DNA from: an uncultured delta proteobacterium
GTDB taxonomy: Bacteria; Myxococcota_A; UBA9160; UBA6930
Length of the DNA stretch: 64,000 nt
Assembly (NCBI GenBank): GCA_963766175.1
Contig: CAVXZE010000021.1
Coordinates: forward strand, 64,363-128,362
Direction: 5' to 3'
In this document: positions 7,600 to 60,178 of the stretch, piece after piece
How the letters are laid out: each line of letters opens with the position of its first letter
Position numbering within the stretch: the first letter of the stretch is position 1
The notes under the pieces: generated by a model
Told to the model about the DNA's origin: nothing
Seen by the model: only the letters and a program-made list of their open reading frames with translations
Databases searched by the model: none
Made by a program: the position numbers and the translations under genes

Positions 7600-7627
7600 C
7601 CGGGAATCATCACCGAAGCTTCAGGAC

Positions 7628-10015: not shown

Positions 10016-10070
10016 CTCCGGCACGAGCTCTCGGGGCGGCGCACCGCGCGGAGCGTTCCCGTCGCTCGCC

Positions 10071-11995: not shown

Positions 11996-12088
11996 CCGGC
12001 CTGTAGCGATACCTGACCCCCCGGACCTTCACGCGTGTGGCAGGTCTGCACCCAGGCCAGCGAGTAGGGAGTTGATTCCAGGCGAACC

Positions 12089-12523: not shown

Positions 12524-12550
12524 TGCTCCTCGGAACGGCGTAGCGCGTCG

Positions 12551-13552: not shown

Positions 13553-13584
13553 ACACGTGACCCGTCTGCGTGAGTTGGCCCTCG

Positions 13585-27417: not shown

Positions 27418-27820
27418 TGGCCTGGTCCTCCAGGAAGCAGATGATGTCCTGCCGATCCTCACTCCGCTTGAGTCCGGTGAACGGCATCCAGTTGCTGTCG
27501 ACGAATGCCGCAGGGTCCGCGAGGTACCGATCGAGCTTCTCGCGGTCCCAGGTGAAGTCGGCATCCCGAAACGCGTGGGAGTAGTCGAAGCCGGGGGCGG
27601 TGCCCGCCTTTCGCTCGATCACCCCGTTCAGGTTGGGACCGACCACGTGCGGGCCTCCGGCTTCGGCCGTGTGGCAGGGCTGGCATTTCACGAAGACCTG
27701 CCGGCCCCTGGTCTGATCGCAGACGCGCGTCTCATCGCCGGCGGAGGAGACCAGCGCGGCCAATCCGACGCCGGCGAGCGCGGCGCCCAGCCACAGGACC
27801 TTGGCGGATCTGAAGCGCAT
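27410..27820 (-). CDS. Class I c-type cytochrome (c2/c550-like), secreted
   Basis: 136 aa. It has a signal peptide, the haem motif CQPCH, the following GPNLNGV, and a distal Met region (NWMPFTGL). Confidence 0.85.
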
Positions 27821-31983: not shown

Positions 31984-32190
31984 GACCCCTCCTGCCGCGT
32001 TTGGCCCCACCTGCCGGCGGGGTGAACAGGTAAAGTCTTATCAGTTTCAAAGCGGTCCAACCAGTTCTCCGGGGTAGAGTTCATTCGTCGTGGAGGCGTT
32101 CGGCCCCTCGGGCGCGGACTAATCTGTGGGGCAATACCCACGACTCCGTTGGTCTTGGAGGGCTGACGCGCCTCACCGCTCGCGACGGAC

Positions 32191-39271: not shown

Positions 39272-39431
39272 TCGACCCCTCCTGATTCCGACCGCTGTAG
39301 AGACAGTGGGTGCATCGTCTCGCGAGCCGAGCGCCAGTGCAAGCCGGCGACGGCGCGGCTGCGGGCCACCACGATCTCTCGCCGCAGGGTCTCCCGGCAG
39401 ATCTTGGTTAGAATCAGCCGCGGAGGTGCGG

Positions 39432-40838
39432 ATGTCGGAGAATGTCGTCGCTCAGCTGGACCCGATTTTCAGGCCGAAGTCTCTGGCGCTGATCGGTGCA
39501 AGCAACAACCCCTCGAAATGGGGGGGCATGGTGCTCGGCCGCGCCCTCTCCTGCGCCTTTCGCGGCCGCATCTATCCGGTCAATCCGAAAGAAACGGAGA
39601 TCTCGGGTCTGCGTGCCTATCGCGATGTCCTGGAGATCCCCGATCCCGTCGATCTGGCCATCTTCACGATCCCCGCCGCAGAGATCCCGGCAACCATGAA
39701 GAGCTGCGTGGAGAAGGGCATCAAGGGAGCAGTCGTCATCTCCGCGGACTTCGCCGAGACAGGCGAGCGAGGGAGGGCTCTCGAACGGGAAACCGTCCGG
39801 ATCGCACGGGAAGGTGGACTGCGATTCATCGGCCCCAACGGAAACGGGATGTGGACATCCGCCGTCGGACTGAACGCCTCTCCTCTCCCGACTCCCTTGC
39901 CGGGGAGCCTGGCCATGATCAGCCAGAGCGGCATGTTCGGAGGGGCGGCCATCCACGCAACCTTGAGCAAGGGTTTCGGCCTGAGCAAGTTTGTCGCCAT
40001 GGGCAACCAGGCCGACCTCACCGCCGCGGACTACCTGGCGTACCTGAGCAGCGACGAAGATACCCGGGTCATCGCACTCTATCTGGAAGGCCTGAAGGAA
40101 GGCCGCAGGTTTCTCGAGGTGGCGAGAGAAGTCTCACGGCAGAAACCGATCGTGGTGTTGAAGGGAGGACGATCGGCGCCGGGAGCGAGGGCGACCCTAT
40201 CGCACACGGCCTCGATCGCGGGCGAAGACAGCATCTTCGACGCCGTCTGCCGGCAGGCCGGACTGATCCGGGTCTCCCAGCTCGAGCACCTCTTCCTGAT
40301 GGCCGAGGCGCTGCTCAGCCAGCCGCTGCCCGGAGGAGACCGGATTGCCGTGGTCGGCAATGGCGGACAGGGGGTCGCTACCGTCGACAACCTGGCGGCA
40401 CTCGGCATCGACGTGCCCGAATTCGCTGAACAGGACCAGCTCGATCTGAAGAAGCTCCTGCCTCCGCACGCCCCGATTCCGAGAAATCCCGTGGACTTCG
40501 CGGCGGGGGCAATGGACACCAGCGACGAGGTCAACGTGATCGAAAAGATCGCATCCCTCGACTACATCGACGGCATCATCACCAACGTGCCGAGAGAGAG
40601 CAGCTTCAAGTCCTCGTCCCACGCCGAGCGCAAGAAGGCGGTGATCACGGCTGCCGACCAATTCGCCCGCATCCCCGAGAAGTACGGCAAGCCGATCATC
40701 ACCCAGAAGCTGATGCCATCCGAGACCGTCGTCGAGCTTCTGCGGCAAGGCGGGATCCCGATGTACGACACGCCCCAGGAATGCGCCCTCGCCATGTCCG
40801 CCCTGACCCGCTACGCCCGGATCAAGAACCGGCCCTGA
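39432..40838 (+). CDS. ADP-forming acyl-CoA synthetase (ACD) alpha-type subunit, paralogue 1
   Basis: ATG 39432 lies after GGAGG. It has a CoA-binding N-terminus (IFRPKSLALIGASNNPSKWG), FIGPNGNGMW and a phospho-His loop (LSHTASIAGE). 468 aa. Confidence 0.85.
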   Translation: MSENVVAQLDPIFRPKSLALIGASNNPSKWGGMVLGRALSCAFRGRIYPVNPKETEISGLRAYRDVLEIPDPVDLAIFTIPAAEIPATMKSCVEKGIKGAVVISADFAETGERGRALERETVRIAREGGLRFIGPNGNGMWTSAVGLNASPLPTPLPGSLAMISQSGMFGGAAIHATLSKGFGLSKFVAMGNQADLTAADYLAYLSSDEDTRVIALYLEGLKEGRRFLEVAREVSRQKPIVVLKGGRSAPGARATLSHTASIAGEDSIFDAVCRQAGLIRVSQLEHLFLMAEALLSQPLPGGDRIAVVGNGGQGVATVDNLAALGIDVPEFAEQDQLDLKKLLPPHAPIPRNPVDFAAGAMDTSDEVNVIEKIASLDYIDGIITNVPRESSFKSSSHAERKKAVITAADQFARIPEKYGKPIITQKLMPSETVVELLRQGGIPMYDTPQECALAMSALTRYARIKNRP

Positions 40839-46728: not shown

Positions 46729-46868
46729 TCCTTCCCCACGCCACCTCGTCTCCGTGGGGCCGACCGATGGACCCGCACTGGCTCAAGCATCTCCAGTCTA
46801 GCCCGGATCGCGAGGCGGGACGAAGCTTCGGAGATCCACTATCAAATGGAGGAAACGGAGAGTTCACC

Positions 46869-48311
46869 TTGACGAATCCGAACGACTTCGAGCCCGTCTT
46901 CCATCCCCGCTCCGTCGCCGTCGTCGGCGCCTCCAACGACATCACCAAGTTCGGAGGCCGGACCTACGCGTCCCTGAAGGCGCGGCGTTTCCAGGGCGGA
47001 CTCTATGCGGTGAACCCCAGCGTAACGGAGGTCGGCGGCGACAGGGCCTACGCGCGGGTACAGGATATTCCCGAGAAGGTGGACATGGCGATCGTCGTCG
47101 TCGCCGCTCCCCACGTGGTGCGGACCCTCGCAGACTGCGCGGAGAAGGGCGTGCGCGCCGCACAGATCCTGACCGCGGGCTTCCGGGAGAGCGGTTCCGA
47201 AGAGGGTGCCCGCTGGGAAGAGCAGATCGCCCGGATCGCGCGCCAGAGCGGAATCAGGATCGTGGGCCCCAATTGCTTCGGGATCTACAGCCCGGAGAGC
47301 GCGCTCACGGTGCTTCCGGGCCCCGACTTCCCCAGCGAGAGTGGCCCGGTGGGCCTCCTGGCCCAGAGCGGTGGCCTGACTTCCTTTCTGGTCCGCAGGG
47401 CGATGGGCCTGGGAATCCGCTTCAGCAAGGCCGTGAGCTACGGCAACGCCTGCGACCTCAACGAGACCGACTTTCTCTCCTACTTCGGAGCCGACGATCA
47501 AACCCGGATGGTGGGCGCCTACATCGAAGGCGTCCGTGATGGCAGGCGCCTCTTCGAGGTGGCGAGAAGCACTTCGCTCCGCAAGCCGATCTTCATCTGG
47601 AAGGGTGGACTCACCGCGCTCGGCAGTCGCGCGGTGGCCAGTCACACGGCCTCGCTGGGCGGCAGCCAACGGATCTGGGAGGGGTTCTTGCGCCAGACCG
47701 GTGTGATCCCCGTGGTGGGCATCGACGAGATGATCGATCTCATGGTCGGGTTTCAGCACCTGCCCGATTTTCGGGGACGGCGAGTCTCGGTCGTCAGCGG
47801 CGGCGGTGCAATCACGGTAGCGGCCTGTGACGAGCTGGATCCCGCTGGCCTCTCGTTGCCCGATTTTTCGAGTCGAACCCAGGAGACGATTCGCGCGCTG
47901 CTGCCCGCCACTGGAAACACCGTGGGGAATCCTCTCGACACCGGTCCTCCCGTATTTCTGCTCCCCACCGTGAAGCCCATCCTCGAGGCCGTCGCGGCCA
48001 GCGACCGCATCGACGCCGTCATCGTTCAGCACGAGGTGGGCAGCCATTCGCCGGATTTCGAGGAAGCAGCGGCCCAGGTGATCCCCTCGGTCCAGCAGGC
48101 CAGTGCCAAGCCCTTCCTGGTGACCATGCCGGCGCCCACGACTTCGAGCGATGCGATGGGCGTCGAAATGGTGCGCCGGAAGTATCGCGAATGGTATCTG
48201 GAGCGCGGCATCCCCGTCTTCGACACGCTTCACCGCGCCGTGCGCACCCTCGAAGCAATCATCCGCTACAACGAATTCCTGGCAAGGCACGAGTCCCGAA
48301 GCAGTCTTTGA
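46869..48311 (+). CDS. ADP-forming acyl-CoA synthetase alpha-type subunit, paralogue 2
   Basis: It has VFHPRSVAVVGASNDITKFGG, IVGPNCFGIY and ASHTASLGGS. The start is uncertain (TTG 46869 after GGAGAG; the track ORF starts at 46767). Confidence 0.85.
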   Translation: MTNPNDFEPVFHPRSVAVVGASNDITKFGGRTYASLKARRFQGGLYAVNPSVTEVGGDRAYARVQDIPEKVDMAIVVVAAPHVVRTLADCAEKGVRAAQILTAGFRESGSEEGARWEEQIARIARQSGIRIVGPNCFGIYSPESALTVLPGPDFPSESGPVGLLAQSGGLTSFLVRRAMGLGIRFSKAVSYGNACDLNETDFLSYFGADDQTRMVGAYIEGVRDGRRLFEVARSTSLRKPIFIWKGGLTALGSRAVASHTASLGGSQRIWEGFLRQTGVIPVVGIDEMIDLMVGFQHLPDFRGRRVSVVSGGGAITVAACDELDPAGLSLPDFSSRTQETIRALLPATGNTVGNPLDTGPPVFLLPTVKPILEAVAASDRIDAVIVQHEVGSHSPDFEEAAAQVIPSVQQASAKPFLVTMPAPTTSSDAMGVEMVRRKYREWYLERGIPVFDTLHRAVRTLEAIIRYNEFLARHESRSSL

Positions 48312-48425
48312 CGGATCTGCGTGGCCAAACACGGCTCCTTGACGCGGATCGGCCTGGAACTTAGGTTACCGCCCGCCTGAGATTCCCTCTTCGAGCCGTG
48401 CCCGTATTCTTCGGAGTTGCCCAAG

Positions 48426-49838
48426 ATGCCGCCCGCCATCAAAGACCAGCTGGATCCGATCTTTCGCCCGCGCTCCGTCGCCGTCGTCGGTGCTTCGAAT
48501 CGCCAGGATCGCTGGGGCTACGAGACGATGTACAACGTCTTGAACTGGAGTCAGTTCCGCGGAGAAGTGTACCCGATCCATCCAAAGGACGAGCTCGTTC
48601 ACGGACTCAAGGCCTACAAGAGCGTGATCGAGGTGCCGGGGCCCATCGATCTCGCCGTCATCGTCGTGAACGCGAGCCAGGTGGTGGACGTGTTTCGGCA
48701 GTGTGCGGAGAAGAAGGTGGGCGGCGCGGTCATCATCACAGCCGGCTTCGCCGAGGTGGGGGCCGAGGGGGCCAGGCTCCAAGAGGAGCTGGTGCAGATC
48801 TCCCGGGAGAGCGGCATCCGCTTCGTGGGCCCGAACTGCAACGGCCTCTGGACCTCGGCCGTCCGGCTGAATCTCACCTTCTGGAACCTGGTGAAGCGCG
48901 GCCCGATCGCCTTCGTATCGCAGAGCGGAACCATGGGCGACTACATGTTCGAAGTCTCGGAGTCCAAGGGATATGGATTCTCCAAGATCGTGACCTCGGG
49001 CAACCAGGCGAGCCTGGAGGTCTGCGACTATCTCGAGTATCTGGCCGACGACGACGACACCAAGGTTGTGGCGCTCTACCTGGAAGGGCTGAAGGACGGC
49101 AGGCGCTTCCTGGAGGCAGCGCGCAAGGCAACCGCCCGAAAGCCGGTGCTGGCCTACAAGGTGGGGCGCACGGAAGCCGGGTCGCGCGCCGCATCGACCC
49201 ATACGGCATCGCTCACCGGCAGCACTCAGCTCTTCGACGCGGCGTGCCGCCAGGCGGGTGTGCAGGTCTGTGACGACATGCTGGAGATGTTCGATTTCGC
49301 CGACACACTCGCCCACCAGCCCCTTCCGCCGGGCAACCGGGTCGGCATCGCGTCCGGAGGTGGCGGCTTCTGCGTGGTGACTGCGGAGGCCTGCGCAAAG
49401 GTGGGCCTCGAGGTCCCGGTGCTCGACGAGGCAGCCCAGCGCGAAGTGCTCGGGCACGTACGCGAGTTCTCGCCATCACCCCTGAACCCCCTCGACCTGA
49501 TCGCCCGCAAGACGCACCTCGACTACGGCGCAGCCATCGAGATCCTCGCCAAGCAGGACTACATCGACGGCCTGATCATCATGCCGCCCTACGGTGGCTT
49601 CCAACGAACCTCGTCATTGGATGCCATGAAGGGGCTGGTGGAGTGCTGCAATACCATTGCGGACATCCCCGGCAAGTATCAGAAGCCGGTGCTGGCGTTC
49701 GCCAGGCGGGAGATCAGGAATACGGCGACCTACCAGATTCTCGCGCGCGGCAAGATCCCCTTCTACGAGTCCCCCGAGACCTGCGCCCGGGCCATGAAGG
49801 CGCTCTGCTCCTACGCCGAATTTCGCCGATCCCGTTAG
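48426..49838 (+). CDS. ADP-forming acyl-CoA synthetase alpha-type subunit, paralogue 3
   Basis: It has IFRPRSVAVVGASNRQDRWG, FVGPNCNGLW and STHTASLTGS. ATG 48426 lies 9 nt after CGGAG (the track ORF starts at TTG 48417). Confidence 0.85.
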   Translation: MPPAIKDQLDPIFRPRSVAVVGASNRQDRWGYETMYNVLNWSQFRGEVYPIHPKDELVHGLKAYKSVIEVPGPIDLAVIVVNASQVVDVFRQCAEKKVGGAVIITAGFAEVGAEGARLQEELVQISRESGIRFVGPNCNGLWTSAVRLNLTFWNLVKRGPIAFVSQSGTMGDYMFEVSESKGYGFSKIVTSGNQASLEVCDYLEYLADDDDTKVVALYLEGLKDGRRFLEAARKATARKPVLAYKVGRTEAGSRAASTHTASLTGSTQLFDAACRQAGVQVCDDMLEMFDFADTLAHQPLPPGNRVGIASGGGGFCVVTAEACAKVGLEVPVLDEAAQREVLGHVREFSPSPLNPLDLIARKTHLDYGAAIEILAKQDYIDGLIIMPPYGGFQRTSSLDAMKGLVECCNTIADIPGKYQKPVLAFARREIRNTATYQILARGKIPFYESPETCARAMKALCSYAEFRRSR

Positions 49839-49889
49839 GAATCCGGCCGCCTTGGCCTTTGCGCCGGACCTCGTTATTCTGCGGACGCC

Positions 49890-50546
49890 ATGACACACAC
49901 CCTCTCCGAATATGAGTCGAAGCAGCTGCTAGCGGACGCCGGCATTCCGATTCCCCAGGAGCGCCTGGTCTCCTCCGCGGAGGAGGCGGTGCAGGCCGCC
50001 GAAGAGCAGGGATTCCCCGTCGCACTGAAGCTCTGCGGCCGCGGCATCGCCCACAAGACCGAGCGAAACCTGGTGCGCCTCGACGTGGGCAACGCCGAGG
50101 ACGTGCGGCGACACGCCGCAGACCTGCTGGCCCAGCGCGGGCCCGATGAGGGCGACGCGGGCGTGCTGGTCCAGGCGATGGTCTCCGGGAGACGCGAGCT
50201 GATCGCGGGCCTGCTGCGCGATCCGCAGTTCGGCCCGTGCGTGATGTTCGGCCTGGGCGGCGTATTCGCAGAGCTGATCGGCGACGTCGCGTTCGCCGTC
50301 GCCCCGCTGGCAGAGAACGACGCAGAGGACCTGATGCGCGCGCTTCGCCATCACAAGATCCTGGACGCGTTCCGGGGCGAGCCGGAGGCCGACATCGCCA
50401 AGCTGGGGCAGATCCTCGAGGCGCTGGGACGCATCGGCGAAGCTCGACCCGACGTGCTGTCGATCGACGTGAACCCCCTGATCCTCTCCGGCGCCGATCC
50501 GGTGGTCGTCGACGCGCTCGTCGAGCTCGACGGGGATCCGAGCTGA
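49890..50546 (+). CDS. ADP-forming acyl-CoA synthetase beta subunit (ATP-grasp domain)
   Basis: 218 aa. The sequence LSEYESKQLLADAGIPIP...GFPVALKL...VLVQAMV...ELIAGLLRDPQFGPCVMFGLGG is the typical ATP-grasp_5 pattern. Confidence 0.85.
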   Translation: MTHTLSEYESKQLLADAGIPIPQERLVSSAEEAVQAAEEQGFPVALKLCGRGIAHKTERNLVRLDVGNAEDVRRHAADLLAQRGPDEGDAGVLVQAMVSGRRELIAGLLRDPQFGPCVMFGLGGVFAELIGDVAFAVAPLAENDAEDLMRALRHHKILDAFRGEPEADIAKLGQILEALGRIGEARPDVLSIDVNPLILSGADPVVVDALVELDGDPS

Positions 50547-50567: not shown

Positions 50568-52079
50568 TCACGCCCAGATCGCCTCCATCTCCCAGACGTC
50601 CACGGCCGACGTCAGAGCCCCTTCCCCTCGCGCGAGAAGGGTCAACGGGCGCCCTCCTTCGGATTCGAGCGCTCCCTCCCCGACGCCGGGCCAGTCTCCG
50701 CCGGCGGTGAGCGCAGCCCGACCGTTGGCGTAGATCTCCACGACCGAGCGGTCGAGAAAGATCCGCAGCTCCAGCCGGCCCTCTCCCGGGAGAACCCGGA
50801 ACTCCCCGGACCGCTCCGCGCAGCTGAGCCGGCCCGCCTCGCGGTCATAGGCGACCGCGATCTGCCTCTGACCGGGGGCGACGTCACCGAGGGTCAGACC
50901 CACCTCACGCGCTTCCCCCAGCTCGAACTCGGCGCAGATTTCCACCGTGTCCGAGGGCAGGTCCATCAGGATCGTGGGCTCGTCCTTCGGGAGGGCGATG
51001 CTCTCCCACCTCTGGTGGCGTCTTCGGAGCCGAGCCAGCTCCGGGAGAGGCTCGATTCCCAGCTGTCCGTCCGCGCGCAGACTGAGCACGCGCGGAAGGG
51101 TGAGCACGCCCCTCCAGCAGGCACCTGCTGGGCCGACCTGCACCCATCCCCACTGGATGCGCCTCCCCTGCGGATCGAGCATGGAGTTCGGAGCGTAGAA
51201 GTCCTCGCGGCGACCGAGGTCCATCGGGAGCCAATCGGTCTCCGGCCTGAAGCGATGCTCCGCGAAGTCGCCCATCGCGTAGATGACCTGGGCGAAGGGC
51301 GAGACGCAGAGCAGCCACTTGTCACCCAGAGGGAAGAAGTTCGGGCACTCCATCACGTCGGTCGCGCCCCGGAAGAGGGGTCCGAGATAGGTCCAGTCAC
51401 GGAGATCCGGCGAGCGATACAGGAGCACGCATCCGCCCTGTCCCCGGATCCCACCTCCCAGGGCCATGTACCACGACTCGCGATCTCTCCAGCAGAAGGG
51501 GTCGCGAAAGCCCTCCAGATCGCCGCGCGGAGGCGTCGAAATCACCGGATTCCCGGCGTGCTTGATCCAGCTCCGCAGACGATCCTCACTGGTCGCGATG
51601 CACTGGCACTCCGGAGAGACGCCCGTGTAGAGAATCGTCGGAACGCCGTCGTGGATCACGCAGCAGCCGGAAAAGACCCCGTCCTCGTCGTAGCTTCCGG
51701 GACCCGGAGCCAGCGCAATGGGAAGGTGCTCCCAGCGGACCAGATCTCGGCTCACCGCGTGTCCCCAGCTCATGTTTCCCCACTCGCTGCCAAAGGGATT
51801 GTGCTGGAAGAACAGATGGTATTCGCCGTCGTAGTAGACGGGCCCGTTGGGATCGTTGATCCAGTGTGCGGGGCTGGTCAGATGATAGATGGGACGACTG
51901 GGATCGGACGCCGCCCGCTCCGCGTCCGCCGCGACACTCGCGTTGGCGCGCTCGAGGGCGCGCCGATGTTCGAGATTGATCTGGTCCACGAGCCCTGACT
52001 GCCGAGATCCCGCGCCGCGGTGGCGATGGCGGGCCCCGGTGCTCGATCGGCCCTCTCCCCGAGACATGACCGTGGTCAT
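50568..52079 (-). CDS. Glycoside hydrolase family 32 (beta-fructofuranosidase / sucrose-6-P hydrolase-like)
   Basis: GH32 catalytic motifs are present: WINDPNGPVYYDGEYHLFFQHNP, FRDPFCW and MECPNFF. The start is uncertain because the N-terminal ~40 aa are Arg/Gly-rich. Confidence 0.9.
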   Translation of the reverse strand: MTTVMSRGEGRSSTGARHRHRGAGSRQSGLVDQINLEHRRALERANASVAADAERAASDPSRPIYHLTSPAHWINDPNGPVYYDGEYHLFFQHNPFGSEWGNMSWGHAVSRDLVRWEHLPIALAPGPGSYDEDGVFSGCCVIHDGVPTILYTGVSPECQCIATSEDRLRSWIKHAGNPVISTPPRGDLEGFRDPFCWRDRESWYMALGGGIRGQGGCVLLYRSPDLRDWTYLGPLFRGATDVMECPNFFPLGDKWLLCVSPFAQVIYAMGDFAEHRFRPETDWLPMDLGRREDFYAPNSMLDPQGRRIQWGWVQVGPAGACWRGVLTLPRVLSLRADGQLGIEPLPELARLRRRHQRWESIALPKDEPTILMDLPSDTVEICAEFELGEAREVGLTLGDVAPGQRQIAVAYDREAGRLSCAERSGEFRVLPGEGRLELRIFLDRSVVEIYANGRAALTAGGDWPGVGEGALESEGGRPLTLLARGEGALTSAVDVWEMEAIWA

Positions 52080-54916
52080 ACCGCAACCCAGCCGGAGCCT
52101 CCATATCTGAAGGGGAGAACCCTGACCGGTAGAGGAGAACGGTGGTGGCGGGACCTTCTGGAGCGTGGGCGAATCGGTATCGCGAGAAGTGGACCTGGGA
52201 CAAGGTGACCTTCGGTGGCCACTCGGTGGACTGCTATCCGGGCGGCTGCTCGTGGCGCGTCTACACCAAGGGCGACAAGATCGTCCGCGAGGAGCAATCC
52301 GCCCTGTGGAGCCCGACCGAGCCCGGAGTGCCCGACCTGAACCCGATGGGGTGCCAGAAAGGCGCGTGCTGGAGCCACTGCCACTACTCGCCCGACCGCG
52401 TGACCGAGCCCCTCAAGCGGGTCGGTGAGCGGGGCAAGGGACAGTTCGAGGCGGTCTCCTGGGACGAGGCGCTGGGCGACATCGCCGACGCCATGCTCGA
52501 CGCCATCGAGGACCAGGGTGTGGAATCGATCATCACCCCGCTCACACCCGAGGTCGGGGCGGGACCGGCCCGCCAACACACCTATATGTTGGGCACGCCG
52601 ACCACCGATGGCAACGCGGAGTTCCAGGACTTCAGTCCGGGCTGGCACATCACCTGGGGTCTCTACAACCCGACTGCGAGCATGGACGACTGGTTCCTGG
52701 CGGAGCTGACGCTGATCTGGCACGCGAACCCGGTCTACACCAACATCCAGTGGTACCACTTCGTAGCCGAGTCCCGATACAACGGCGGCGAGGTGGTGAC
52801 GATCGCCCCGGATTACAGCCCCTCGGCGATTCACGCGGACAACCACCAGCCGATCCGGATCGGCACCGATGCGGCGCTGGCGCTGGCGATGTGCAAGGTG
52901 ATCATCGACGCCGGCTTGTACAAGAAGCAGTTCGTGCAGGAGCAGACGGATCTCCCGCTGCTGGTGCGCAAGGACAACGGCCGCTTCCTGCGCGGCTCCG
53001 ACGTGGTGGAGGGGGAGCGCGAGGACCAGTTCTACTGGTGGGACACGCTGACCGGGACGCTGACTCCGGCGCCGCGGGGAACGCTCGCGACCACGGGCGC
53101 GGATCCGGCCCTGGAGGGCAGCTACTCGGTGCTGCTCAAGGACATGACGACGGTGGAGGTCGAGCCCGTCTTCGTGCGCCTGCAACGTCACCTGGAGGAC
53201 TACACGCCGGAGAAGGCCGGTGAGATCTGCGGAATCCACCCGGAGAACATCCGCAAGCTGGCGCGGAAGGTGGCGACGCGGAAGACCAAGATCTTCATCG
53301 GCTGGAACTCGGGCAAGTACTACCACGGGGACCTGATGGAGCGCGCGATGGCACTGCTCCTGGGTCTCACCGCCAACTGGGGCAAGAAGGGAACCGGCAC
53401 CCGCTCCTGGGCGGTCATGGGGTGGGACGGCGGCTCCTTCATGAGCCGCAAGGAAGGCCCCGGGCAGGAGGCGGCCCAGAAGCTGATCGCCTCCATGATC
53501 GCGATGAGGCGCCTCGTCAGTGCCCAGGATCCGACCATGACCCCGGAGATGATCCAGAACCGGGTGGCGGAGGAGGCGGGCGAGCTCGGCGGAATGGGGA
53601 TGATGATGCCGCCCGCGTTTCTCTGGTACTACCAGTACGGGTACAAGGAGCGCTGGAACGACCCGGAGAACAACGACCCGACCATGAAGCGCAGCTTCGG
53701 CGAGTACCTGGAGGAGGCGCTGGAGAAAGGCTGGTGGAACCCCTCCAGCAGCAAGCTCTACGAGAAGGTCGAGCCGCGGGTGCTGTTCGAATCCGGCGGC
53801 AACCTGCTGCGCCGTCAGCGGGGCGGACAGAAGCTGCTCCTGAAGCACCTCTGGCCGAAGCTCAAGATGATCGTCTCCTGCGACTACCGGATCACGACGA
53901 CCGGGCTCTATTCGGACTACATCCTTCCGGCCGCCCAGCACTACGAGAAGCTCGGCAACAGCATGCCCTCGGTGCATCACCTGAACTACGTGCTCTGCGA
54001 TCACGCCACTCCGCCGCGCGGCAATTCTCTGCCCGACCAGGAAATCGGTCTTCGCCTGGTCGAGAAGATCGAGGAGCGGGCTGCGGCGCGCGGCATGAAG
54101 GAGTTCACGGACAGCAACGGGACCGTCCGCAGCCTGGTCGGCCTGGTGCACGCCGCCACCCTGGGCGGAGCCGTACGCGACGTGGAGAAGTACCAGGAGG
54201 AGGAAATCAAAGACAGCGCGGTCTACGGGGTCCTGCCCAAGGGGACCACGCTCCAGACGCTGCGCGAGAAGGGCCAGGTGCGGTTCGCCAGCTGGGGAAT
54301 GGTGGGCCACGGCATCTCCCAGGGATCGACCATCCGGCCCGACGAGGTGCACAACCCGCTGCGCTGGCACACCGAGGACAAGGTCCCCTACGACACCCTG
54401 GTCCGGCGCGCCCAGTTCTACATCGACCACGAGTGGTTCCTGGAGGCGGGGGAGGAGCTGGCGACCCACAAGGAGCCGCCGCCTGGACACGGGGGACGAA
54501 ACCGCCGCTTCGAGATGACCAGCGGGCACAACCGCTGGAGCATCCACTCGATGAACCTGACCAACAACATCATCCAGAATACCTACCGGGGCGAGCCCAT
54601 CGTGTTCGTCAACGACAAGGACGCGGCGGAGCTGGGCATCGAGAACGGCGAGCAGGTGAAGCTGGTCAGCGACGTCGGGGACTGCCTGCTCGCTGCCAAG
54701 ATCACCCCGTCCTGCCGGCCGGGTCAGGTGATCCTGTACAACGGCTTCGAGCCCTACATGCACGAGAACTGGTACAGCCAGGCCGACTTGGAGCCCGGAC
54801 ACGTGAAGCACCTGGGCATGGTCGGCAACTACGGACACCTCAAGTACCGCGGCTTCTCGTGGCAACCGATTCCGGCGGACCGGGCGGTGCGGGTGGACCT
54901 GGAGAAGGTCAGCTAG
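52054..54916 (+). repeat. Tandem duplication unit 1 (GH32 5' end + leader + Mo-enzyme gene)
   Basis: The match to unit 2 begins at TCTCCCCGAGACATGACCGTGGTCATACCGCA (52054 vs 54967) and ends at the stop codons. The sequences 3' of the two stops are unrelated. Confidence 0.85.
52142..54916 (+). CDS. Type-II DMSO-reductase-family molybdopterin oxidoreductase catalytic (alpha) subunit, copy 1 (NarG/EbdA/SerA-like)
   Basis: 924 aa from GTG 52142, after GAGGAG. The FS0 motif is H27-x3-C31-x4-C36-x34-C71 (WTWDKVTFGGHSVDCYPGGCSWRVY...NPMGCQKG). The candidate Mo-ligand Asp is in EFQD163F. A C-terminal MGD-binding domain is present (IVFVNDKDAAELGIENGEQVKLV). An in-frame TAG at 52130 excludes a Tat leader. 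Confidence 0.9.
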   Translation: MVAGPSGAWANRYREKWTWDKVTFGGHSVDCYPGGCSWRVYTKGDKIVREEQSALWSPTEPGVPDLNPMGCQKGACWSHCHYSPDRVTEPLKRVGERGKGQFEAVSWDEALGDIADAMLDAIEDQGVESIITPLTPEVGAGPARQHTYMLGTPTTDGNAEFQDFSPGWHITWGLYNPTASMDDWFLAELTLIWHANPVYTNIQWYHFVAESRYNGGEVVTIAPDYSPSAIHADNHQPIRIGTDAALALAMCKVIIDAGLYKKQFVQEQTDLPLLVRKDNGRFLRGSDVVEGEREDQFYWWDTLTGTLTPAPRGTLATTGADPALEGSYSVLLKDMTTVEVEPVFVRLQRHLEDYTPEKAGEICGIHPENIRKLARKVATRKTKIFIGWNSGKYYHGDLMERAMALLLGLTANWGKKGTGTRSWAVMGWDGGSFMSRKEGPGQEAAQKLIASMIAMRRLVSAQDPTMTPEMIQNRVAEEAGELGGMGMMMPPAFLWYYQYGYKERWNDPENNDPTMKRSFGEYLEEALEKGWWNPSSSKLYEKVEPRVLFESGGNLLRRQRGGQKLLLKHLWPKLKMIVSCDYRITTTGLYSDYILPAAQHYEKLGNSMPSVHHLNYVLCDHATPPRGNSLPDQEIGLRLVEKIEERAAARGMKEFTDSNGTVRSLVGLVHAATLGGAVRDVEKYQEEEIKDSAVYGVLPKGTTLQTLREKGQVRFASWGMVGHGISQGSTIRPDEVHNPLRWHTEDKVPYDTLVRRAQFYIDHEWFLEAGEELATHKEPPPGHGGRNRRFEMTSGHNRWSIHSMNLTNNIIQNTYRGEPIVFVNDKDAAELGIENGEQVKLVSDVGDCLLAAKITPSCRPGQVILYNGFEPYMHENWYSQADLEPGHVKHLGMVGNYGHLKYRGFSWQPIPADRAVRVDLEKVS

Positions 54917-54966
54917 CCGAAAGCGCTGTAGATTCGCGGCCCTCGGACCGGAGAACGCCGAGACGG

Positions 54967-57946
54967 TCTCCCCGAGACATGACCGTGGTCATACCGCAGC
55001 CCGGCCAGAGCCCGCATAAAGGGGCGGTAGGACAAACCCTTCCTGTCCGTTCGGACAGGAGAACTCGGATCCGATTGCTCAGCGTGGCGGAGCGATCTGG
55101 CTGTAGGCCTGTGTCGATCGTTCCCGGTCGTCGCGGAGCTGGGCTGTGCGGTTCAGGGCCGGTAGAGGAGAACGGTGGTGGCGGGACCTTCTGGAGCGTG
55201 GGCGAATCGGTATCGCGAGAAGTGGACCTGGGACAAGGTGACCTTCGGTGGCCACTCGGTGGACTGCTATCCGGGCGGCTGCTCGTGGCGCGTCTACACC
55301 AAGGGCGACAAGATCGTCCGCGAGGAGCAATCCGCCCTGTGGAGCCCGACCGAGCCCGGAGTGCCCGACCTGAACCCGATGGGGTGCCAGAAAGGCGCGT
55401 GCTGGAGCCACTGCCACTACTCGCCCGACCGCGTGACCGAGCCCCTCAAGCGGGTCGGTGAGCGGGGCAAGGGACAGTTCGAGGCGGTCTCCTGGGACGA
55501 GGCGCTGGGCGACATCGCCGACGCCATGCTCGACGCCATCGAGGACCAGGGTGTGGAATCGATCATCACCCCGCTCACACCCGAGGTCGGGGCGGGGGCC
55601 GCCCGTTACCACACCTTTACGCTGGGCACGCCGACCACCGATGGCAACGCGGAGTTCCAGGACTTCAGTCCGGGCTGGCACATCACCTGGGGTCTCTACA
55701 ACCCGACTGCGAGCATGGACGACTGGTTCCTGGCGGAGCTGACGCTGATCTGGCACGCGAACCCGGTCTACACCAACATCCAGTGGTACCACTTCGTAGC
55801 CGAGTCCCGATACAACGGCGGCGAGGTGGTGACGATCGCCCCGGATTACAGCCCCTCGGCGATTCACGCGGACAACCACCAGCCGATCCGGATCGGCACC
55901 GATGCGGCGCTGGCGCTGGCGATGTGCAAGGTGATCATCGACGCCGGCTTGTACAAGAAGCAGTTCGTGCAGGAGCAGACGGATCTCCCGCTGCTGGTGC
56001 GCAAGGACAACGGCCGCTTCCTGCGCGGCTCCGACGTGGTGGAGGGGGAGCGCGAGGACCAGTTCTACTGGTGGGACACGCTGACCGGGACGCTGACTCC
56101 GGCGCCGCGGGGAACGCTCGCGACCACGGGCGCGGATCCGGCCCTGGAGGGCAGCTACTCGGTGCTGCTCAAGGACATGACGACGGTGGAGGTCGAGCCC
56201 GTCTTCGTGCGCCTGCAACGTCACCTGGAGGACTACACGCCGGAGAAGGCCGGTGAGATCTGCGGAATCCACCCGGAGAACATCCGCAAGCTGGCGCGGA
56301 AGGTGGCGACGCGGAAGACCAAGATCTTCATCGGCTGGAACTCGGGCAAGTACTACCACGGGGACCTGATGGAGCGCGCGATGGCGCTGCTCCTGGGTCT
56401 CACCGCCAACTGGGGCAAGAAGGGAACAGGCACCCGCTCCTGGGCGATCATGGGGTACGACGGCGGCTCCTTCATGTCCCGCAAGGAGGGCCCCGGGCAG
56501 GAGGCGGCCCAGAAGCTGATCGCCTCCATGATCGCGATGCGGCGTCTGGTCACGGCCCAGGACCCGACCATGACGGCGGAGATGGTCCAGAACCGCGTCG
56601 CGGAGGAGGCGGGCGAGCTCGGCGGAATGGGGATGATGATGCCGCCCGCGTTCCTCTGGTACTACCAGTACGGAATGAAGGAGCGCTGGAACGACCCGGA
56701 GAACAACGACCCGACCATGAAGCGCAGCTTCGGCGAGTACCTGGAGGAGGCGCTGGAGAAAGGCTGGTGGAACCCCTCCAGCAGCAAGATCTACGAAAAG
56801 GTCGAGCCGAGGGTGCTGTTCGAGTCCGGCGGCAACCTGCTGCGCCGTCAGCGGGGTGGGCAGAAGCTACTCCTGAAGCACGTCTGGCCGAAGCTCAAGA
56901 TGATCGTCTCCTGCGACTACCGGATCACGACGACCGGGCTCTATTCGGACTACATCCTTCCGGCCGCCCAGCACTACGAGAAGCTCGGCAACAGCATGCC
57001 CTCGGTGCATCACCTGAACTACGTGCTCTGTGACAAGGCGACCCCGCCGCGCGGCAATTCTCTGCCCGACCGCGAGATCGGCGTTCGCCTGGTCGAGAAG
57101 ATCGAGGAGCGGGCTGCGGCGCGCGGCATGAAGGAGTTCACGGACAGCAAGGGGACCGTCCACGGCCTGGTCGGCCTGGTGCACGCCGCCACCCTGGGCG
57201 GAGCCGTACGCGACACGGACAAGCAGTTCGAGGAGCAGATCGCCGACAGCGCGGTCTACGGGGTCCTGCCCAAGGGGACCACGCTCCAGACGCTGCGCGA
57301 GAAGGGGCAGGTGCGCTTCACCGGCTGGGGAATGGTGGGCCACGGCATCTCCCAGGGATCGACGATCCGGCCCGACGAGGTGCACAACCCGCTGCGCTGG
57401 CACACCGAGGACAAGGTCCCCTACGACACCCTGGTCCGGCGCGCCCAGTTCTACATCGACCACGAGTGGTTCCTGGAGGCGGGAGAGGAGCTGGCGACCC
57501 ACAAGGAGCCGCCCACACACGGCGGGGCCAATCGCCGCTTCGAGATGACCAGCGGACACAACCGCTGGAGCATCCACTCGATGAACCTGACCAACAACAT
57601 CATCCAGAATACCTACCGGGGCGAGCCCATCGTGTTCATCAACGACAAGGACGCGGCGGAGCTGGGCATCGAGAACGGCGAGCAGGTGAAGCTGGTCAGC
57701 AACGTCGGGGACTGCCTGCTCGCCGCAAAGATCACACCGTCTTGCCGGCCGGGCCAGGTGATCCTGTACAACGGCTTCGAGCCCTACATGCACGAGAACT
57801 GGTACAGCCAGGCCGACCTGGAGCCCGGGCACATGAAGCACCTGGGACTGGTCGGCAACTACGGTCACCTCAAGTACCGCGGCTTCTCCTGGCAGCCGAT
57901 TCCGTCGGACCGGGCGGTTCGGGTGGACCTGGAGAAGGTCTCCTAG
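54967..57946 (+). repeat. Tandem duplication unit 2 (with a ~120-nt leader insertion at about 55041-55158)
   Basis: It carries a copy of the first ~26 nt of the GH32 coding sequence (minus strand, MTTVMSRG). The leader diverges and contains an 8-bp hairpin, TCCTGTCC-GTTC-GGACAGGA, at 55041-55060. Confidence 0.85.
55175..57946 (+). CDS. Type-II DMSO-reductase-family molybdopterin oxidoreductase catalytic (alpha) subunit, copy 2
   Basis: 923 aa. It is identical to copy 1 over residues 1-~404 except for four residues at 142-149. About 30 substitutions and one 1-aa indel occur in the C-terminal half. It has the same SD/GTG context. Confidence 0.9.
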   Translation: MVAGPSGAWANRYREKWTWDKVTFGGHSVDCYPGGCSWRVYTKGDKIVREEQSALWSPTEPGVPDLNPMGCQKGACWSHCHYSPDRVTEPLKRVGERGKGQFEAVSWDEALGDIADAMLDAIEDQGVESIITPLTPEVGAGAARYHTFTLGTPTTDGNAEFQDFSPGWHITWGLYNPTASMDDWFLAELTLIWHANPVYTNIQWYHFVAESRYNGGEVVTIAPDYSPSAIHADNHQPIRIGTDAALALAMCKVIIDAGLYKKQFVQEQTDLPLLVRKDNGRFLRGSDVVEGEREDQFYWWDTLTGTLTPAPRGTLATTGADPALEGSYSVLLKDMTTVEVEPVFVRLQRHLEDYTPEKAGEICGIHPENIRKLARKVATRKTKIFIGWNSGKYYHGDLMERAMALLLGLTANWGKKGTGTRSWAIMGYDGGSFMSRKEGPGQEAAQKLIASMIAMRRLVTAQDPTMTAEMVQNRVAEEAGELGGMGMMMPPAFLWYYQYGMKERWNDPENNDPTMKRSFGEYLEEALEKGWWNPSSSKIYEKVEPRVLFESGGNLLRRQRGGQKLLLKHVWPKLKMIVSCDYRITTTGLYSDYILPAAQHYEKLGNSMPSVHHLNYVLCDKATPPRGNSLPDREIGVRLVEKIEERAAARGMKEFTDSKGTVHGLVGLVHAATLGGAVRDTDKQFEEQIADSAVYGVLPKGTTLQTLREKGQVRFTGWGMVGHGISQGSTIRPDEVHNPLRWHTEDKVPYDTLVRRAQFYIDHEWFLEAGEELATHKEPPTHGGANRRFEMTSGHNRWSIHSMNLTNNIIQNTYRGEPIVFINDKDAAELGIENGEQVKLVSNVGDCLLAAKITPSCRPGQVILYNGFEPYMHENWYSQADLEPGHMKHLGLVGNYGHLKYRGFSWQPIPSDRAVRVDLEKVS

Positions 57947-59094
57947 AAGCGGTCGACGGCCCGGGCGACGGGGAGGATCAGCACCCCGGCGCCCAGGCCG
58001 CAGGCGATCACGAAGCCGCCGAGGACCGGGTAGCCCGCATCGGTGACCATCAACCCGGCCGCGCCCGGGCCGATGGCAACCCCCACGGCCGAGATGCCCG
58101 CGGCAGCGGCCGTCCAGCGGCCGAGCGGATCGAGCGCCGCGGCGGTTCCCAACAAATAGGGCAGCGCGAAGAAGAAGGCGATCGCCCAGGCGAGAAGACC
58201 CGCCAGATAGAGTCCAGAGCTTCCCGCGATCACGACCATCCAGGTGGCGACGACGTTGGCCCCGAGTCCCACGGCGAGGAGCATCGGCCGGCCCCCGCGC
58301 GTCCCCACCACCGCGGCGATCACTCCTCCGGCGAGGCCAGCCAGTGTCGTGACGCCCAGAGCCAGGCCGACCTCCTCGCGGGAGAAGCCGACGGTGATTC
58401 CGATGCGCTCGCTGAAGGCCCAGATCGCCCCTTGCCCGACGGAGAAGAGAAAGATCGAAGCGAGAGTGGTGATCCCCAGGAGCCTCCGGCCGGGCAACCC
58501 GCGCAATCCCGCCGCAGTTTTCGGAATCGTCGGAAGCCAGAAGAGGAAGGGAAGGCAGAGAAGTGAGATCACGACGATCGCGCCGAATCCCCCCGAATGG
58601 CCCCACGGCGCGATCGCATAGGGGAGCGCCACCAGGGCTGCCGCGAAGACGAGTCCCCCGAGGACGGTTGCCTGGGCGAAGAGACGGTCGGGGTCCCGCG
58701 CCGACGCGGCAGCGGAGTTGGCGGCGGCGATCGCCGCGCCCTCTCCCAGCCCCGCGACGATCCGAGCGAGCATCAACACCGGGAAGGAATCCACCAGCGC
58801 GGAGAGCCCGTGCCCCGTGCAGGCGGCGATCGCACCGTAGACCGCCAGGTGGCGCCGCGACATACGGTCCACGCGAGGCGCCAGGATCAACGAGGCGGCA
58901 GCGAGCCCGCCGAGCTCGAGGCTCCCGAGAACGCCCGCGCCCACCTCATCCAGACCGAATCCGTCGATCAGCGATCCGATCAGCAGCGGCAGGACATTCT
59001 CGCACGTGTAAGCCACGACGAACGCCGCGACTACGGCCACGATGAGCCGCCGTGAGTCTCGGAGATTCGCCGGCTTCGTGTCCGCGTCGGCCAA
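57943..59094 (-). CDS. MFS transporter
   Basis: It has about 12 TM helices. The start is uncertain: TTG 59094 lies directly after the upstream TAG, whereas the track ATG 59139 would overlap the URO-D gene by 44 nt. It converges on Mo-enzyme copy 2 with a 4-nt overlap. Confidence 0.8.
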   Translation of the reverse strand: MADADTKPANLRDSRRLIVAVVAAFVVAYTCENVLPLLIGSLIDGFGLDEVGAGVLGSLELGGLAAASLILAPRVDRMSRRHLAVYGAIAACTGHGLSALVDSFPVLMLARIVAGLGEGAAIAAANSAAASARDPDRLFAQATVLGGLVFAAALVALPYAIAPWGHSGGFGAIVVISLLCLPFLFWLPTIPKTAAGLRGLPGRRLLGITTLASIFLFSVGQGAIWAFSERIGITVGFSREEVGLALGVTTLAGLAGGVIAAVVGTRGGRPMLLAVGLGANVVATWMVVIAGSSGLYLAGLLAWAIAFFFALPYLLGTAAALDPLGRWTAAAAGISAVGVAIGPGAAGLMVTDAGYPVLGGFVIACGLGAGVLILPVARAVDRF

Positions 59095-59095
59095 G

Positions 59096-60178
59096 CTAGG
59101 CGTAGGCACCGTACTTCTTGGTGGCCTCGAACATGGCAATGCAGTTCTCGGGATCGACCCCGGGATGCAGGGAATTCGAGGAGCAGATGATCAATCCGCC
59201 GCCCTCTCCGGCATCCTCGATCGCCTGGCTGACGGCCGCGTCCACCTCTTCGGGGGTGCCGTGGGGCAGCAGCTCGCGACAGTCGATGTTCCCGAGCAGA
59301 CAGATCCTGTCTCCGCAATACTCCTTGACCCTCTTCAAGTCCATGTCCGCGTGCGGCTCAAGGGGATTGAGCCCGTCGTAGCCGGTCTCCAGCAGGATGT
59401 CGAGCAGCCGCCAGAGATTGCCGTCGCTGTGGCGCACCACCTTGAGCCCCAGCTCCTTGGCGCGCTCGACGAGCTTCCGGTTGTAGGGGCTGACGAACTC
59501 GGCGAAGAAGAGCGGAGAGATCAGAGGTGCCTTGGTCTGAGCGATGTCGTCCTCGATCAACAACACGTCCACCCCCGCCCCTGCGACCAGATCCAGCATC
59601 TGAAGATTGAACTCCAGCGTCATCTGGGCGATGCGATGAACGAAGTCGGGCTCCTCCACCATCATGCACATCAGATTGGCCATTCCCGCCAGGCGCCAGC
59701 TGAGAACGAAGGTCCCGCGCATCATCCAGAACAGGGCGACCTCACCCTTGAAGCGCTCCCGCGCCAGATCGAGAAGCAGAAGGTGCTCCCGCTTCGGGAC
59801 AGGCGAACTGTAGCCGTCGAGCTGCCCCGCCGACTCCAGGGGATGCCCTGTGGGAACCGGGATGCCGTGCGGGTTCCGGGTATAGACGACTCCCCAGTCG
59901 TCCTGCACATGAGCCGGATCGATCTCCCTCTCGTGTCCGATCTCGAAGGCGGTGAATCCGTCGACGCCATACTCCTCGTGGATCAGGAAGAGGGTATCGA
60001 GCAGCTTCGCCTTCTCCTGATCGTTCATTTCGTGGAACTCTTTGGGTTCGGGAAGCCCGTCCGTCAGATGGCGTCCGATCCCGATGATGGGAGCTTCGTT
60101 GATGGCGTGGATGTAGAGGGGGACGCGATCCGGCTGACGAACACTCAGAGCCGTCAGGGTTCTCTCCTTGCCCGTCAT
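59096..60178 (-). CDS. URO-D family protein
   Basis: 360 aa from ATG 60178, with AGGAGG upstream. The N-terminus is MTGKERTLTALSVRQPDRVPLYIH, and RHSDGN replaces H-x-C-G. The upstream 270 codons of track ORF 59096..60988 are junk. Confidence 0.85.
   Translation of the reverse strand: MTGKERTLTALSVRQPDRVPLYIHAINEAPIIGIGRHLTDGLPEPKEFHEMNDQEKAKLLDTLFLIHEEYGVDGFTAFEIGHEREIDPAHVQDDWGVVYTRNPHGIPVPTGHPLESAGQLDGYSSPVPKREHLLLLDLARERFKGEVALFWMMRGTFVLSWRLAGMANLMCMMVEEPDFVHRIAQMTLEFNLQMLDLVAGAGVDVLLIEDDIAQTKAPLISPLFFAEFVSPYNRKLVERAKELGLKVVRHSDGNLWRLLDILLETGYDGLNPLEPHADMDLKRVKEYCGDRICLLGNIDCRELLPHGTPEEVDAAVSQAIEDAGEGGGLIICSSNSLHPGVDPENCIAMFEATKKYGAYA

Follow-up and report, generated by a model that had tools for sequence, protein, structure and literature searches.

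A tandem pair of leaderless, ethylbenzene dehydrogenase-like molybdoenzyme alpha subunits that may share partner subunits encoded elsewhere

The 64,000-nucleotide stretch of contig CAVXZE010000021.1 (GenBank assembly GCA_963766175.1, positions 64,363 to 128,362) from an uncultured delta proteobacterium, referred to here as the window, carries two genes in tandem, designated A1 and A2, for catalytic (alpha) subunits of the type-II branch of the dimethyl sulfoxide reductase (DMSOR) family. Both products are related to EbdA of ethylbenzene dehydrogenase (EBDH) and have no twin-arginine translocation (Tat) leader. It seemed likely, with a probability of about 0.6, that A1 and A2 are catalytic isoforms of a cytoplasmic EBDH-like branch, borrowing a shared beta subunit and membrane partners from elsewhere in the genome. 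The orphan pair is an ordinary member of its family, in which the partner-less state is common and not peculiar to the window.

52142..54916, plus strand: A1, leaderless type-II DMSOR/EBDH-like alpha subunit, 924 aa, loop PARQHTYM
55175..57946, plus strand: A2, leaderless type-II DMSOR/EBDH-like alpha subunit, 923 aa, loop AARYHTFT

A1 and A2 are arranged head to tail and both start with GTG. The string TAG-AGG-AGA-ACG-GTG is identical at the two starts and includes an AGGAGA ribosome-binding site and a TAG in frame four codons upstream of the start codon, which leaves no room for a Tat leader on either protein; this had been the claim of an earlier reading made from the sequence alone (the sequence-only reading), and the string was confirmed at both genes. 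The copies share 96% protein identity and 96.3% DNA identity, and the main duplicated DNA block spans from 16 nt before the start codon through the stop codon. The GC content at third codon positions (GC3) is 0.92 in both, the window maximum, and the ratio of non-synonymous to synonymous substitution rates (dN/dS) between the copies is 0.27 over the whole gene. Both genes are intact and under purifying selection.

The prediction that the two open reading frames (ORFs) of 923 and 924 aa encode type-II alpha subunits was borne out over their full length by matches to Pfam, NCBIfam and EbdA. Pfam detected, in both copies, the Molybdopterin domain (PF00384, E 1e-25) followed by Molydop_binding (PF01568, E 4e-16), the latter corresponding to the C-terminal molybdopterin guanine dinucleotide-binding domain that had been foreseen. 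Scores were 816-818 bits against NCBIfam TIGR03479 ('DMSO_red_II_alp'), under the curated cut-off of 984.75, and 716-722 bits against the EbdA equivalog NF042978, which has a cut-off of 2000. The TIGR03479 alignment begins at model position 43, so that some 42 leader positions are without counterpart in A1 and A2; the match to the EbdA equivalog starts at model position 62, and the alignment to EbdA itself at EbdA residue 62. The top solved relative was EbdA (PDB 2IVF; E 6e-208, 696 bits, query residues 7-922), followed among other solved structures by PcrA (442 bits), NarG (161 bits) and NxrA (111 bits), while acetylene hydratase matched at E 4.5e-15. A1 is about 40% identical to EbdA and about 36-39% identical to most Tat-type paralogues. 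AlphaFold2, given an alignment of 32 sequences, modelled A1 with a mean predicted local distance difference test score (pLDDT) of 59.8 and with cofactor-binding regions below 50, and the result served for coarse fold ranking alone; the fold search with this low-confidence model ranked the relatives as the sequence scores do, with EbdA first and template modelling (TM) scores of 0.33 for acetylene hydratase and 0.34 for transhydroxylase. Membership of the type-II DMSOR family thus stands by both hidden Markov model and structure search, with TIGR03479 and EbdA as the best matches.

The residues expected to hold the cofactors were located in A1 at the following positions.

52220..52354, plus strand: FS0 [4Fe-4S] ligand motif H27-x3-C31-x4-C36-x34-C71 of A1, codons verified
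52550..52552, plus strand: Glu137 of A1, at the position of the EbdA active-site His192, from the alignment
52628..52630, plus strand: Asp163 of A1, candidate Mo ligand (EbdA Asp223), from the alignment

H27, C31, C36 and C71 are present in both copies, align with the FS0 ligands of EbdA and are kept across the clade described below. Asp163, also found in both copies and aligned to EbdA Asp223 as had been proposed, is invariant in 65 aligned relatives (57 leaderless and 8 Tat-type alphas), and Lys392, the counterpart of EbdA Lys450, the partner that holds the Asp ligand monodentate, is invariant in the aligned alphas. The C-x4-C spacing of FS0, previously taken as an anomaly, proved not to be one, since it sits between the C-x5-C of EbdA and the C-x3-C of PcrA and NarG. 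The position of EbdA His192 is occupied by Glu in 56 of 57 leaderless alphas and is variable in Tat-type alphas. Steroid C25 dehydrogenase was reported to be without a counterpart of EBDH His192 (PMC6153880).

No partner gene accompanies A1 and A2 in the window. A tblastn search of the window with the beta, EB_dh gamma, NarJ-like delta, cytochrome b561 and c12 (a small membrane protein, see below) sequences of related loci gave no match, and a Pfam survey of about 55 window ORFs disclosed no Fer4_11, EB_dh (PF09459) or Nitrate_red_del (PF02613) domain, in agreement with the earlier statement that no NarH/EbdB-like, gamma or chaperone ORF occurs in the 64 kb. The Pfam survey showed just one Fe-S protein, an aldo-keto reductase that includes a two-cluster ferredoxin domain and is encoded 20 kb away.

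The relatives of A1 and A2 were collected from a large protein collection, which holds more than 4000 homologues, and from a scan of one genome per species, which gave 473 encoding stretches, the best 78 loci being examined (loci are given below by L numbers). The top 120 homologues share 76-91% identity with the query at 95-100% coverage, are 868-937 aa long and come from metagenome-assembled genomes (MAGs) labelled Candidatus Binatia, Deltaproteobacteria or Myxococcota; hundreds of leaderless relatives of about 922 aa were seen, with Chloroflexota MAGs among the sources beside Binatia, "delta proteobacterium" and Myxococcota, and the loci come from Binatia-like, Myxococcota and Chloroflexota MAGs. 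Two classes coexist in the same genomes. The leaderless class has the motif HSVDCYPGGC, and many of its members have an in-frame stop 10-40 codons before a YRxKWxWDK motif; members of the Tat class carry RRxFL leaders, their motif being H(W/F)VNCWYQxHC. A neighbour-joining tree, rooted on EbdA (sequence from the PDB alignment) and with the Tat-type paralogues as further outgroups, shows the leaderless class as monophyletic and A1 and A2 grouped with the pair of locus L003. As to the phylogenetic placement proposed earlier, both copies were thereby placed in the leaderless clade, in a tree with EbdA and the Tat-type paralogues as outgroups.

Clustering at 50% identity merges essentially the whole clade into one cluster, the nearest representative outside it being 51% identical. 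The suggestion of a new subfamily is therefore supported by a compact monophyletic leaderless clade, which falls below the cut-offs of both TIGR03479 and the EbdA equivalog and is marked by the FS0 motif H-S-V-D-C-Y-P-G-G-C and the invariant Glu at the EbdA His192 position. Its members have generic labels in the databases, and one homologue has the JGI label 'steroid C-25 hydroxylase alpha subunit'. No description of the leaderless clade was found in the literature on Binatia/Binatota or Dehalococcoidia with EBDH-type or molybdopterin enzymes. Further EBDH-like lineages of leaderless alphas lie outside the clade: P0121 (L082-L084, 6757-10847), which belongs to a beta-alpha operon without a gamma gene, and P0135 (L081, 102-2936), from a Sterolibacterium sp. 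MAG, which adjoins a TetR gene and has multihaem cytochrome and cytochrome b561 genes nearby.

The clade normally pairs with an EbdB-like four-cluster beta subunit, in an operon sometimes headed by a membrane cytochrome b561. An EbdB-like beta gene is directly adjacent to 40 of the 89 alphas for which this could be determined (about 45%), usually 20-100 bp downstream, and is not adjacent to the other 49. When the ORFs of the examined loci were clustered, 106 alphas and 39 betas were obtained; the next family has 11 members, so that no third gene is common in these loci. The beta of L005 matches EbdB at E 3e-120 and, as its first cluster motif starts at residue 20, is also without a signal. A cytochrome b561 of the PF01292 (FdnI/HyaC-type) family with five invariant His residues is encoded directly upstream of leaderless alpha-beta genes in L012, L016, L034 and L086/L087. 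Assignment of this gene (cluster c53) to the Tat-type operons was ruled out by strand and order, since it heads leaderless alpha-beta operons. The c12 gene, for a 150-aa membrane protein with no Pfam match, lies upstream of leaderless alphas in L005, L014, L004 and L086, the order in L086 being c12, cytochrome b561, alpha, beta. It was rejected as a universal partner: c12 also forms a two-gene unit with cytochrome b561 that adjoins acyl-CoA dehydrogenases and has no molybdoenzyme nearby (L088/L089, 9001-10051), and it stands alone in a 5.8-Mb genome (L085, 9001-9441), so that c12 is not dedicated to alpha-beta enzymes.

EB_dh gamma and NarJ-like delta genes belong, in the related loci, to divergent Tat-type gamma-beta-alpha(-delta) operons, and an EB_dh gamma gene was not found beside leaderless alphas in these loci. 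On the single contig represented by L086/L087 (1-13950), a Tat-type operon for EB_dh gamma, beta, alpha and NarJ-like delta, with hemerythrin and NnrS genes, stands back to back with the leaderless operon, and the two architectures therefore coexist in one organism. In L027 (10001-16651) the leaderless alpha and beta genes are followed by one for a 639-aa fusion of flavin amine oxidase and cytochrome c with a Tat leader and then by a gene for a NarJ-like chaperone; a homologue of the flavin amine-oxidase part is encoded in the window (25954-27564, minus strand), 25 kb from A1. Other neighbours of the relatives encode acyl-CoA dehydrogenase, SCP-x-type thiolase, AMP-dependent ligase, enoyl-CoA hydratase and short-chain dehydrogenase/reductase, together with TetR, MerR and Crp regulators. 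Such beta-oxidation-type neighbours fit the catabolism of alkyl, isoprenoid or steroid-like compounds. Apparent frameshifts interrupt several alpha and beta genes of the long-read MFD MAGs (L002/L014 at 8921-9959, L005 at about 7300-8400, L077 at 9436-15242); one beta, for instance, was called as 273 + 86 aa. Errors of assembly are a likelier cause than pseudogene formation.

Orphan and beta-linked alphas are interspersed in the neighbour-joining tree. The orphans have a median identity of 79% to the nearest beta-linked alpha, and no alignment column separates the two groups, the best frequency difference being 0.46. Even so, several orthologous groups keep the orphan state throughout.

The pair of the window recurs in other genomes together with its flanking genes, which are as follows in the window.

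46767-50546: ADP-forming acyl-CoA synthetase-type subunits, upstream of GH32 and A1
50568-52079, minus strand: GH32 hydrolase (Pfam survey)
57943-59139, minus strand: major facilitator superfamily (MFS) transporter (Pfam survey)

The Pfam survey agreed with the GH32, MFS and URO-D neighbours named earlier, a URO-D-family gene at about 59096-60100 adjoining the MFS gene downstream of A2. Locus L077 (CAVROS010000007.1, MAG MFD03804.bin.2.110) matches 42.7-64 kb of the window collinearly (21.3 kb, 95.8% nucleotide identity), its GH32 and MFS genes again enclosing the tandem orphan pair; this MAG is from the same or a sister species of the window organism. The same arrangement is present in L003 (MAG MFD03804.bin.2.13), with flanks about 83% and alphas about 92% identical. 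The two MAGs are independent assemblies, in which the pair lies on contigs of 197 kb and 708 kb, so that an assembly artefact is unlikely; the possibility of a chimeric locus had been raised earlier. A look for the alpha-only arrangement in related genomes had also been advised, and the arrangement is common in the family. The MAG of L077 also contains L005, with the order c12, alpha, beta, alpha plus a divergent mobB-beta, and further orphan alphas at L058, L070 and L080, from which it follows that genomes of this lineage carry at least 6-8 alphas and 2-4 betas. The closest beta-linked relative of A1 is the first alpha of L005 (80.8% identity).

Orphans and alpha-beta operons also share a putative regulatory element upstream of the alpha gene. 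The relevant segments of the window are listed here.

52054..52099, plus strand: 46-nt conserved upstream segment, copy 1 (TCTCCCCGAGAC-ATGACCGTGGTCAT-ACCGCA...), 93.5% identical to copy 2
54967..55012, plus strand: 46-nt conserved upstream segment, copy 2, a duplicate of copy 1 in the A1-A2 spacer
52066..52079, no strand: palindromic box ATGACC-GT-GGTCAT, candidate operator, 63 nt upstream of the A1 start codon
54979..54992, no strand: palindromic box ATGACC-GT-GGTCAT, 183 nt upstream of the A2 start codon
55041..55060, plus strand: 9-bp perfect inverted repeat (TCCTGTCCG / CGGACAGGA) in the A1-A2 spacer

Neither copy of the 46-nt segment is continuous with the main duplicated block. There are eight perfect ATGACC-N2-GGTCAT sites in 1.3 Mb of related loci, each of them upstream of a leaderless alpha. 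With up to two mismatches allowed, and at about -80 to -260 from the conserved motif, the box was found for 29 of 64 leaderless alphas against none of six Tat-type alphas, and a control region within the genes gave none. The sites have the consensus ATGAC-N4-GTCAT-A. The box is found upstream of orphans (window, L077, L003, L058, L070, L080) and of alpha-beta operons (L005, L012, L016, L021, L027 and others); it was not found in the Chloroflexota members of the clade. Its 5-4-5 geometry resembles Crp/Fnr-type sites, and the assignment to a regulator of this type is only a hypothesis: Crp/Fnr-family genes occur near alphas in five loci, and TetR and MerR neighbours are at least as common. The mechanical start ATG of the GH32 ORF (52079-52077, minus strand) coincides with the outer arm of the box; because A2 is also preceded by the box, though no gene diverges from it there, GH32 translation probably begins farther downstream. 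Rfam models had no match anywhere in the window, hence no molybdenum cofactor riboswitch upstream of A1 or A2, and scans for sigma-70 promoters and intrinsic terminators at 51.8-58.3 kb found nothing exceeding shuffled expectation. The inverted repeat of the spacer could be a hairpin at the end of the A1 transcript; it has no T tract and the terminator scan was silent there.

The two copies differ in a manner that may point to distinct substrates.

52565..52588, plus strand: codons 142-149 of A1, hypervariable loop between Glu137 and the Mo ligand, PARQHTYM
55598..55621, plus strand: codons 142-149 of A2, alternative version of the loop, AARYHTFT

Nucleotides 1-1200 of A1 and A2 are identical save nine substitutions, all of them recoding and all within the 24-nt patch of codons 142-149, which replace P142A, Q145Y, Y148F and M149T from A1 to A2; the last 1.5 kb differ by about 6%. 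The loop is flanked by the invariant TPE137 and the invariant TDGNAEFQD163FSPG, and no other segment of the family varies as much (entropy 1.66; family mean 0.87). Both versions recur in L077 and L003, hence in three genomes with the window, with the order reversed in L003, and each is linked to either AVMGW or AIMGY at residues 424-428; of these, residues 425 and 428 flank W423 of A1, the counterpart of EbdA Trp481. The simplest reading is that gene conversion homogenises the copies and that selection preserves two different substrate pockets.

Taken together, A1 and A2 would be isoforms of the catalytic subunit, with Mo-bis-pyranopterin and FS0, of a leaderless EBDH-like branch of the type-II DMSORs. 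Each would be made on its own transcript behind the family-specific palindromic box and, in the cytoplasm, would join a beta subunit whose gene lies at a different locus and which serves several alpha paralogues; through this beta it would reach a membrane dihaem cytochrome b, also encoded elsewhere. Each alpha may have its own hydrophobic or alkyl substrate and oxidise it, most likely through water-dependent hydroxylation, the two electrons passing from FS0 to the beta clusters, then to haem b and quinone. The specificity of A1 and A2 would be set by loop 142-149, kept distinct by selection despite gene conversion over 1.2 kb. The idea that such alphas borrow partners encoded elsewhere was among those put forward in the sequence-only reading, and it gains from the finding that about 45% of the clade has an adjacent beta, that A1 is 81% identical to a beta-linked alpha of L005, that no column splits orphans from beta-linked alphas and that the box is common to both.

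Several points weigh against this interpretation. The beta subunit and the cytochrome b are attributed to the window organism from a MAG about 96% identical to it; what is proposed for the chemistry (hydroxylation), the substrates, the metal (Mo or W) and the electron acceptor is drawn from homology and gene neighbourhood, and no biochemically characterised member of the leaderless clade was met in the literature searched. The GH32, MFS, URO-D and ADP-forming acyl-CoA synthetase neighbours in the window give no clue to the substrate. There are more than two alphas for every beta, and some orthologous groups consist wholly of orphans; a beta-independent enzyme would present the same picture. 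The replacement of EbdA His192 by an invariant Glu means that the chemistry may differ from that of EBDH, and the A1 model (mean pLDDT 59.8) is too poor to examine a beta-docking surface.

Comparison with EbdABC of Aromatoleum aromaticum (2IVF) gives the closest likeness, EbdA being the best full-length match, with the same domain order, a His-first FS0, the Asp ligand with its Lys partner, and an EbdB-like beta in the clade (E 3e-120). The differences are that an EB_dh haem-b gamma gene is not found beside leaderless alphas and occurs only with the Tat-type paralogues of these genomes, that a chaperone gene is usually missing from leaderless loci, and that the His192 position, the FS0 spacing (C-x4-C against C-x5-C) and the equivalog score (722 against 2000) all depart from EbdA. 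The characterised EBDH-like members are all described as periplasmic alpha-beta-gamma enzymes (PMC7411048, PMC6153880), and those of Sterolibacterium denitrificans are all Tat-exported and periplasmic (PMC7411048); unlike the EBDH-like hydroxylases EbdABC, p-cymene dehydrogenase and steroid C25/C26 dehydrogenases, the present clade is without a Tat leader. S. denitrificans has eight steroid C25 dehydrogenase alpha paralogues (PMC6016249), and alpha1 was active when produced with beta3-gamma3 and one chaperone, SdhD (PMC6016249). It resembles the present case in having many alpha paralogues per genome, some without their own beta or gamma gene adjacent, and its isoenzymes, which differ in substrate range, use partners and a single chaperone across loci (PMC6016249). 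However, Tat leaders are present on its alphas, which also require a haem-b gamma, while the expansion described here belongs to a different, leaderless clade in other phyla, with an apparent alpha-beta core plus membrane cytochrome b561.

Of the other readings, one makes A1 and A2 part of a reductase that faces the cytoplasm, shares its partners and passes electrons from quinol to an oxyanion or some other oxidised substrate; it is unlikely. The type-II DMSORs do include the reductase-type alphas NarG, PcrA, SerA, ClrA and NxrA; NarGHI has a type-II alpha in which FS0 has a His ligand and the metal an Asp, and its cytoplasmic alpha-beta pair docks on a membrane dihaem cytochrome b, a layout that the cytochrome b561-alpha-beta operons suggest here. 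PcrAB (4YDD), whose alpha is the second-best structural relative (442 bits), is an alpha-beta heterodimer in its crystals, where no gamma is tightly bound, and L086 has NnrS and hemerythrin genes beside its Tat-type operon. Yet the similarity to EbdA is much above that to any reductase: NarG, of about 1245 aa, aligns in pieces and scores only 161 bits, and PcrAB is a periplasmic Tat-exported oxyanion reductase with about 30% identity and an FS0 of C-x3-C. The membrane protein of the clade is of the PF01292 type and not NarI, and narJ normally lies within the nar operon. At least 6-8 alphas per genome with a hypervariable active-site loop suit many organic substrates better than a few oxyanions, and the related loci adjoin beta-oxidation-type genes and TetR, MerR and Crp regulators rather than respiratory or oxyanion transport genes. 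Electron flow in the leaderless enzymes is probably opposite to that in NarGHI.

Still less likely are stand-alone alphas that work without a beta, either as non-redox enzymes of the hydratase or transhydroxylase kind, as the sequence-only reading had considered, or with FS0 exchanging electrons with a soluble ferredoxin or flavoprotein. Their case rests on the 49 of 89 members without an adjacent beta, on the several orthologous groups that are consistently orphan, this pair in three MAGs included, on the 64 kb without a partner gene, and on the wider DMSOR family, which has a single-subunit acetylene hydratase and a redox-neutral pyrogallol transhydroxylase; these are cytoplasmic enzymes with Mo/W-bis-pyranopterin guanine dinucleotide and no gamma, the transhydroxylase being an alpha-beta pair. 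Neither belongs to the type-II branch, and both are far more distant (acetylene hydratase at E 4.5e-15 and TM 0.33, transhydroxylase at TM 0.34) than the beta-using EbdA, PcrA and NarG. The closeness of orphans to beta-linked alphas (median 79%, with no distinguishing residue position), their common upstream box, the invariant FS0 ligands and the retained Asp ligand and Lys partner also argue against stand-alone enzymes, and the orphan alphas of S. denitrificans depend on beta and gamma subunits encoded at a different locus.

An assembly duplication or chimera, or a pair of pseudogenes decaying after the loss of operon partners, is very improbable: the copies are highly alike, with 1.2 kb almost identical, and the exact A1 and A2 proteins were absent from the large protein collection (A1 tried with V or M start), but the pair and its flanks recur in two independent MAGs, both ORFs are full length with GC3 0.92 and dN/dS 0.27, the spacers differ between the copies and the loop variants are distinct and conserved.

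The interpretation of A1 and A2 as isoforms with borrowed partners may tentatively be extended to the whole clade. The leaderless alphas might form a modular cytoplasmic toolkit for the O2-independent oxidation of C-H bonds, much like the P450 families of aerobes, in which half a dozen or more interchangeable alphas in each genome of these uncultured soil bacteria, each with its specificity set by the loop near the Mo ligand, would connect to a common set of electron-exit modules, one or a few in number, made up of beta, cytochrome b561 and c12 and feeding the quinone pool, and a single regulator reading the ATGAC-N4-GTCAT box would switch all of them. A1 and A2 would then be isoenzymes held apart at the loop by selection despite ongoing gene conversion. 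What appears new here is best described as cytoplasmic EBDH-like type-II Mo enzymes, predicted to act without an EB_dh gamma, with Glu in place of His and with many alphas per beta.

If this is true, the known repertoire of O2-independent C-H activation in soils and sediments would be larger, and the variants of loop 142-149 would offer a natural specificity series for enzyme engineering. To our knowledge, the characterised EBDH-type hydroxylases (ethylbenzene, p-cymene, steroid C25/C26) are few in number and hard to produce. These periplasmic enzymes have found use in regioselective hydroxylation, for instance in the synthesis of 25-hydroxyvitamin D3, and a cytoplasmic alpha-beta version might be easier to express because it needs neither export nor a haem-b gamma subunit. 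For MAGs in general, paralogous loci should be checked before 'orphan' molybdoenzyme alphas are called stand-alone.

Some further genes of the window are of note. Three paralogous CoA_binding_2 + Succ_CoA_lig proteins and one ATP-grasp_5 protein are encoded at 39306-40838, 46767-48311, 48417-49838 and 49890-50546; two of the CoA_binding_2 + Succ_CoA_lig genes and the ATP-grasp gene lie just upstream of GH32 and A1, an order kept in L077 and L003. A small protein with a TIR/ThsB-like domain (12089-12523, Pfam E 2e-06) is possibly a remnant of a defence system, and a bacterial RRM_1 RNA-binding protein is encoded at 11585-11995. The 1105-aa product of 28693-32010 (minus strand) has a weak match to DUF1302 and is possibly an outer-membrane protein. 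An SBP56-family protein of the selenium-binding or methanethiol-oxidase type is encoded at 4159-5595, and the gene that follows it (5619-7454) joins SCO1/SenC to a MauG-type dihaem peroxidase, a gene pair that presumably resembles the methanethiol oxidase clusters of methylotrophs. Beside the copy near A2, two more URO-D-family genes are present: one at 37352-38488, and the other at 13585-14682, translationally coupled to a gene for a B12-binding corrinoid protein (14679-15329) as in methyltransferase systems.

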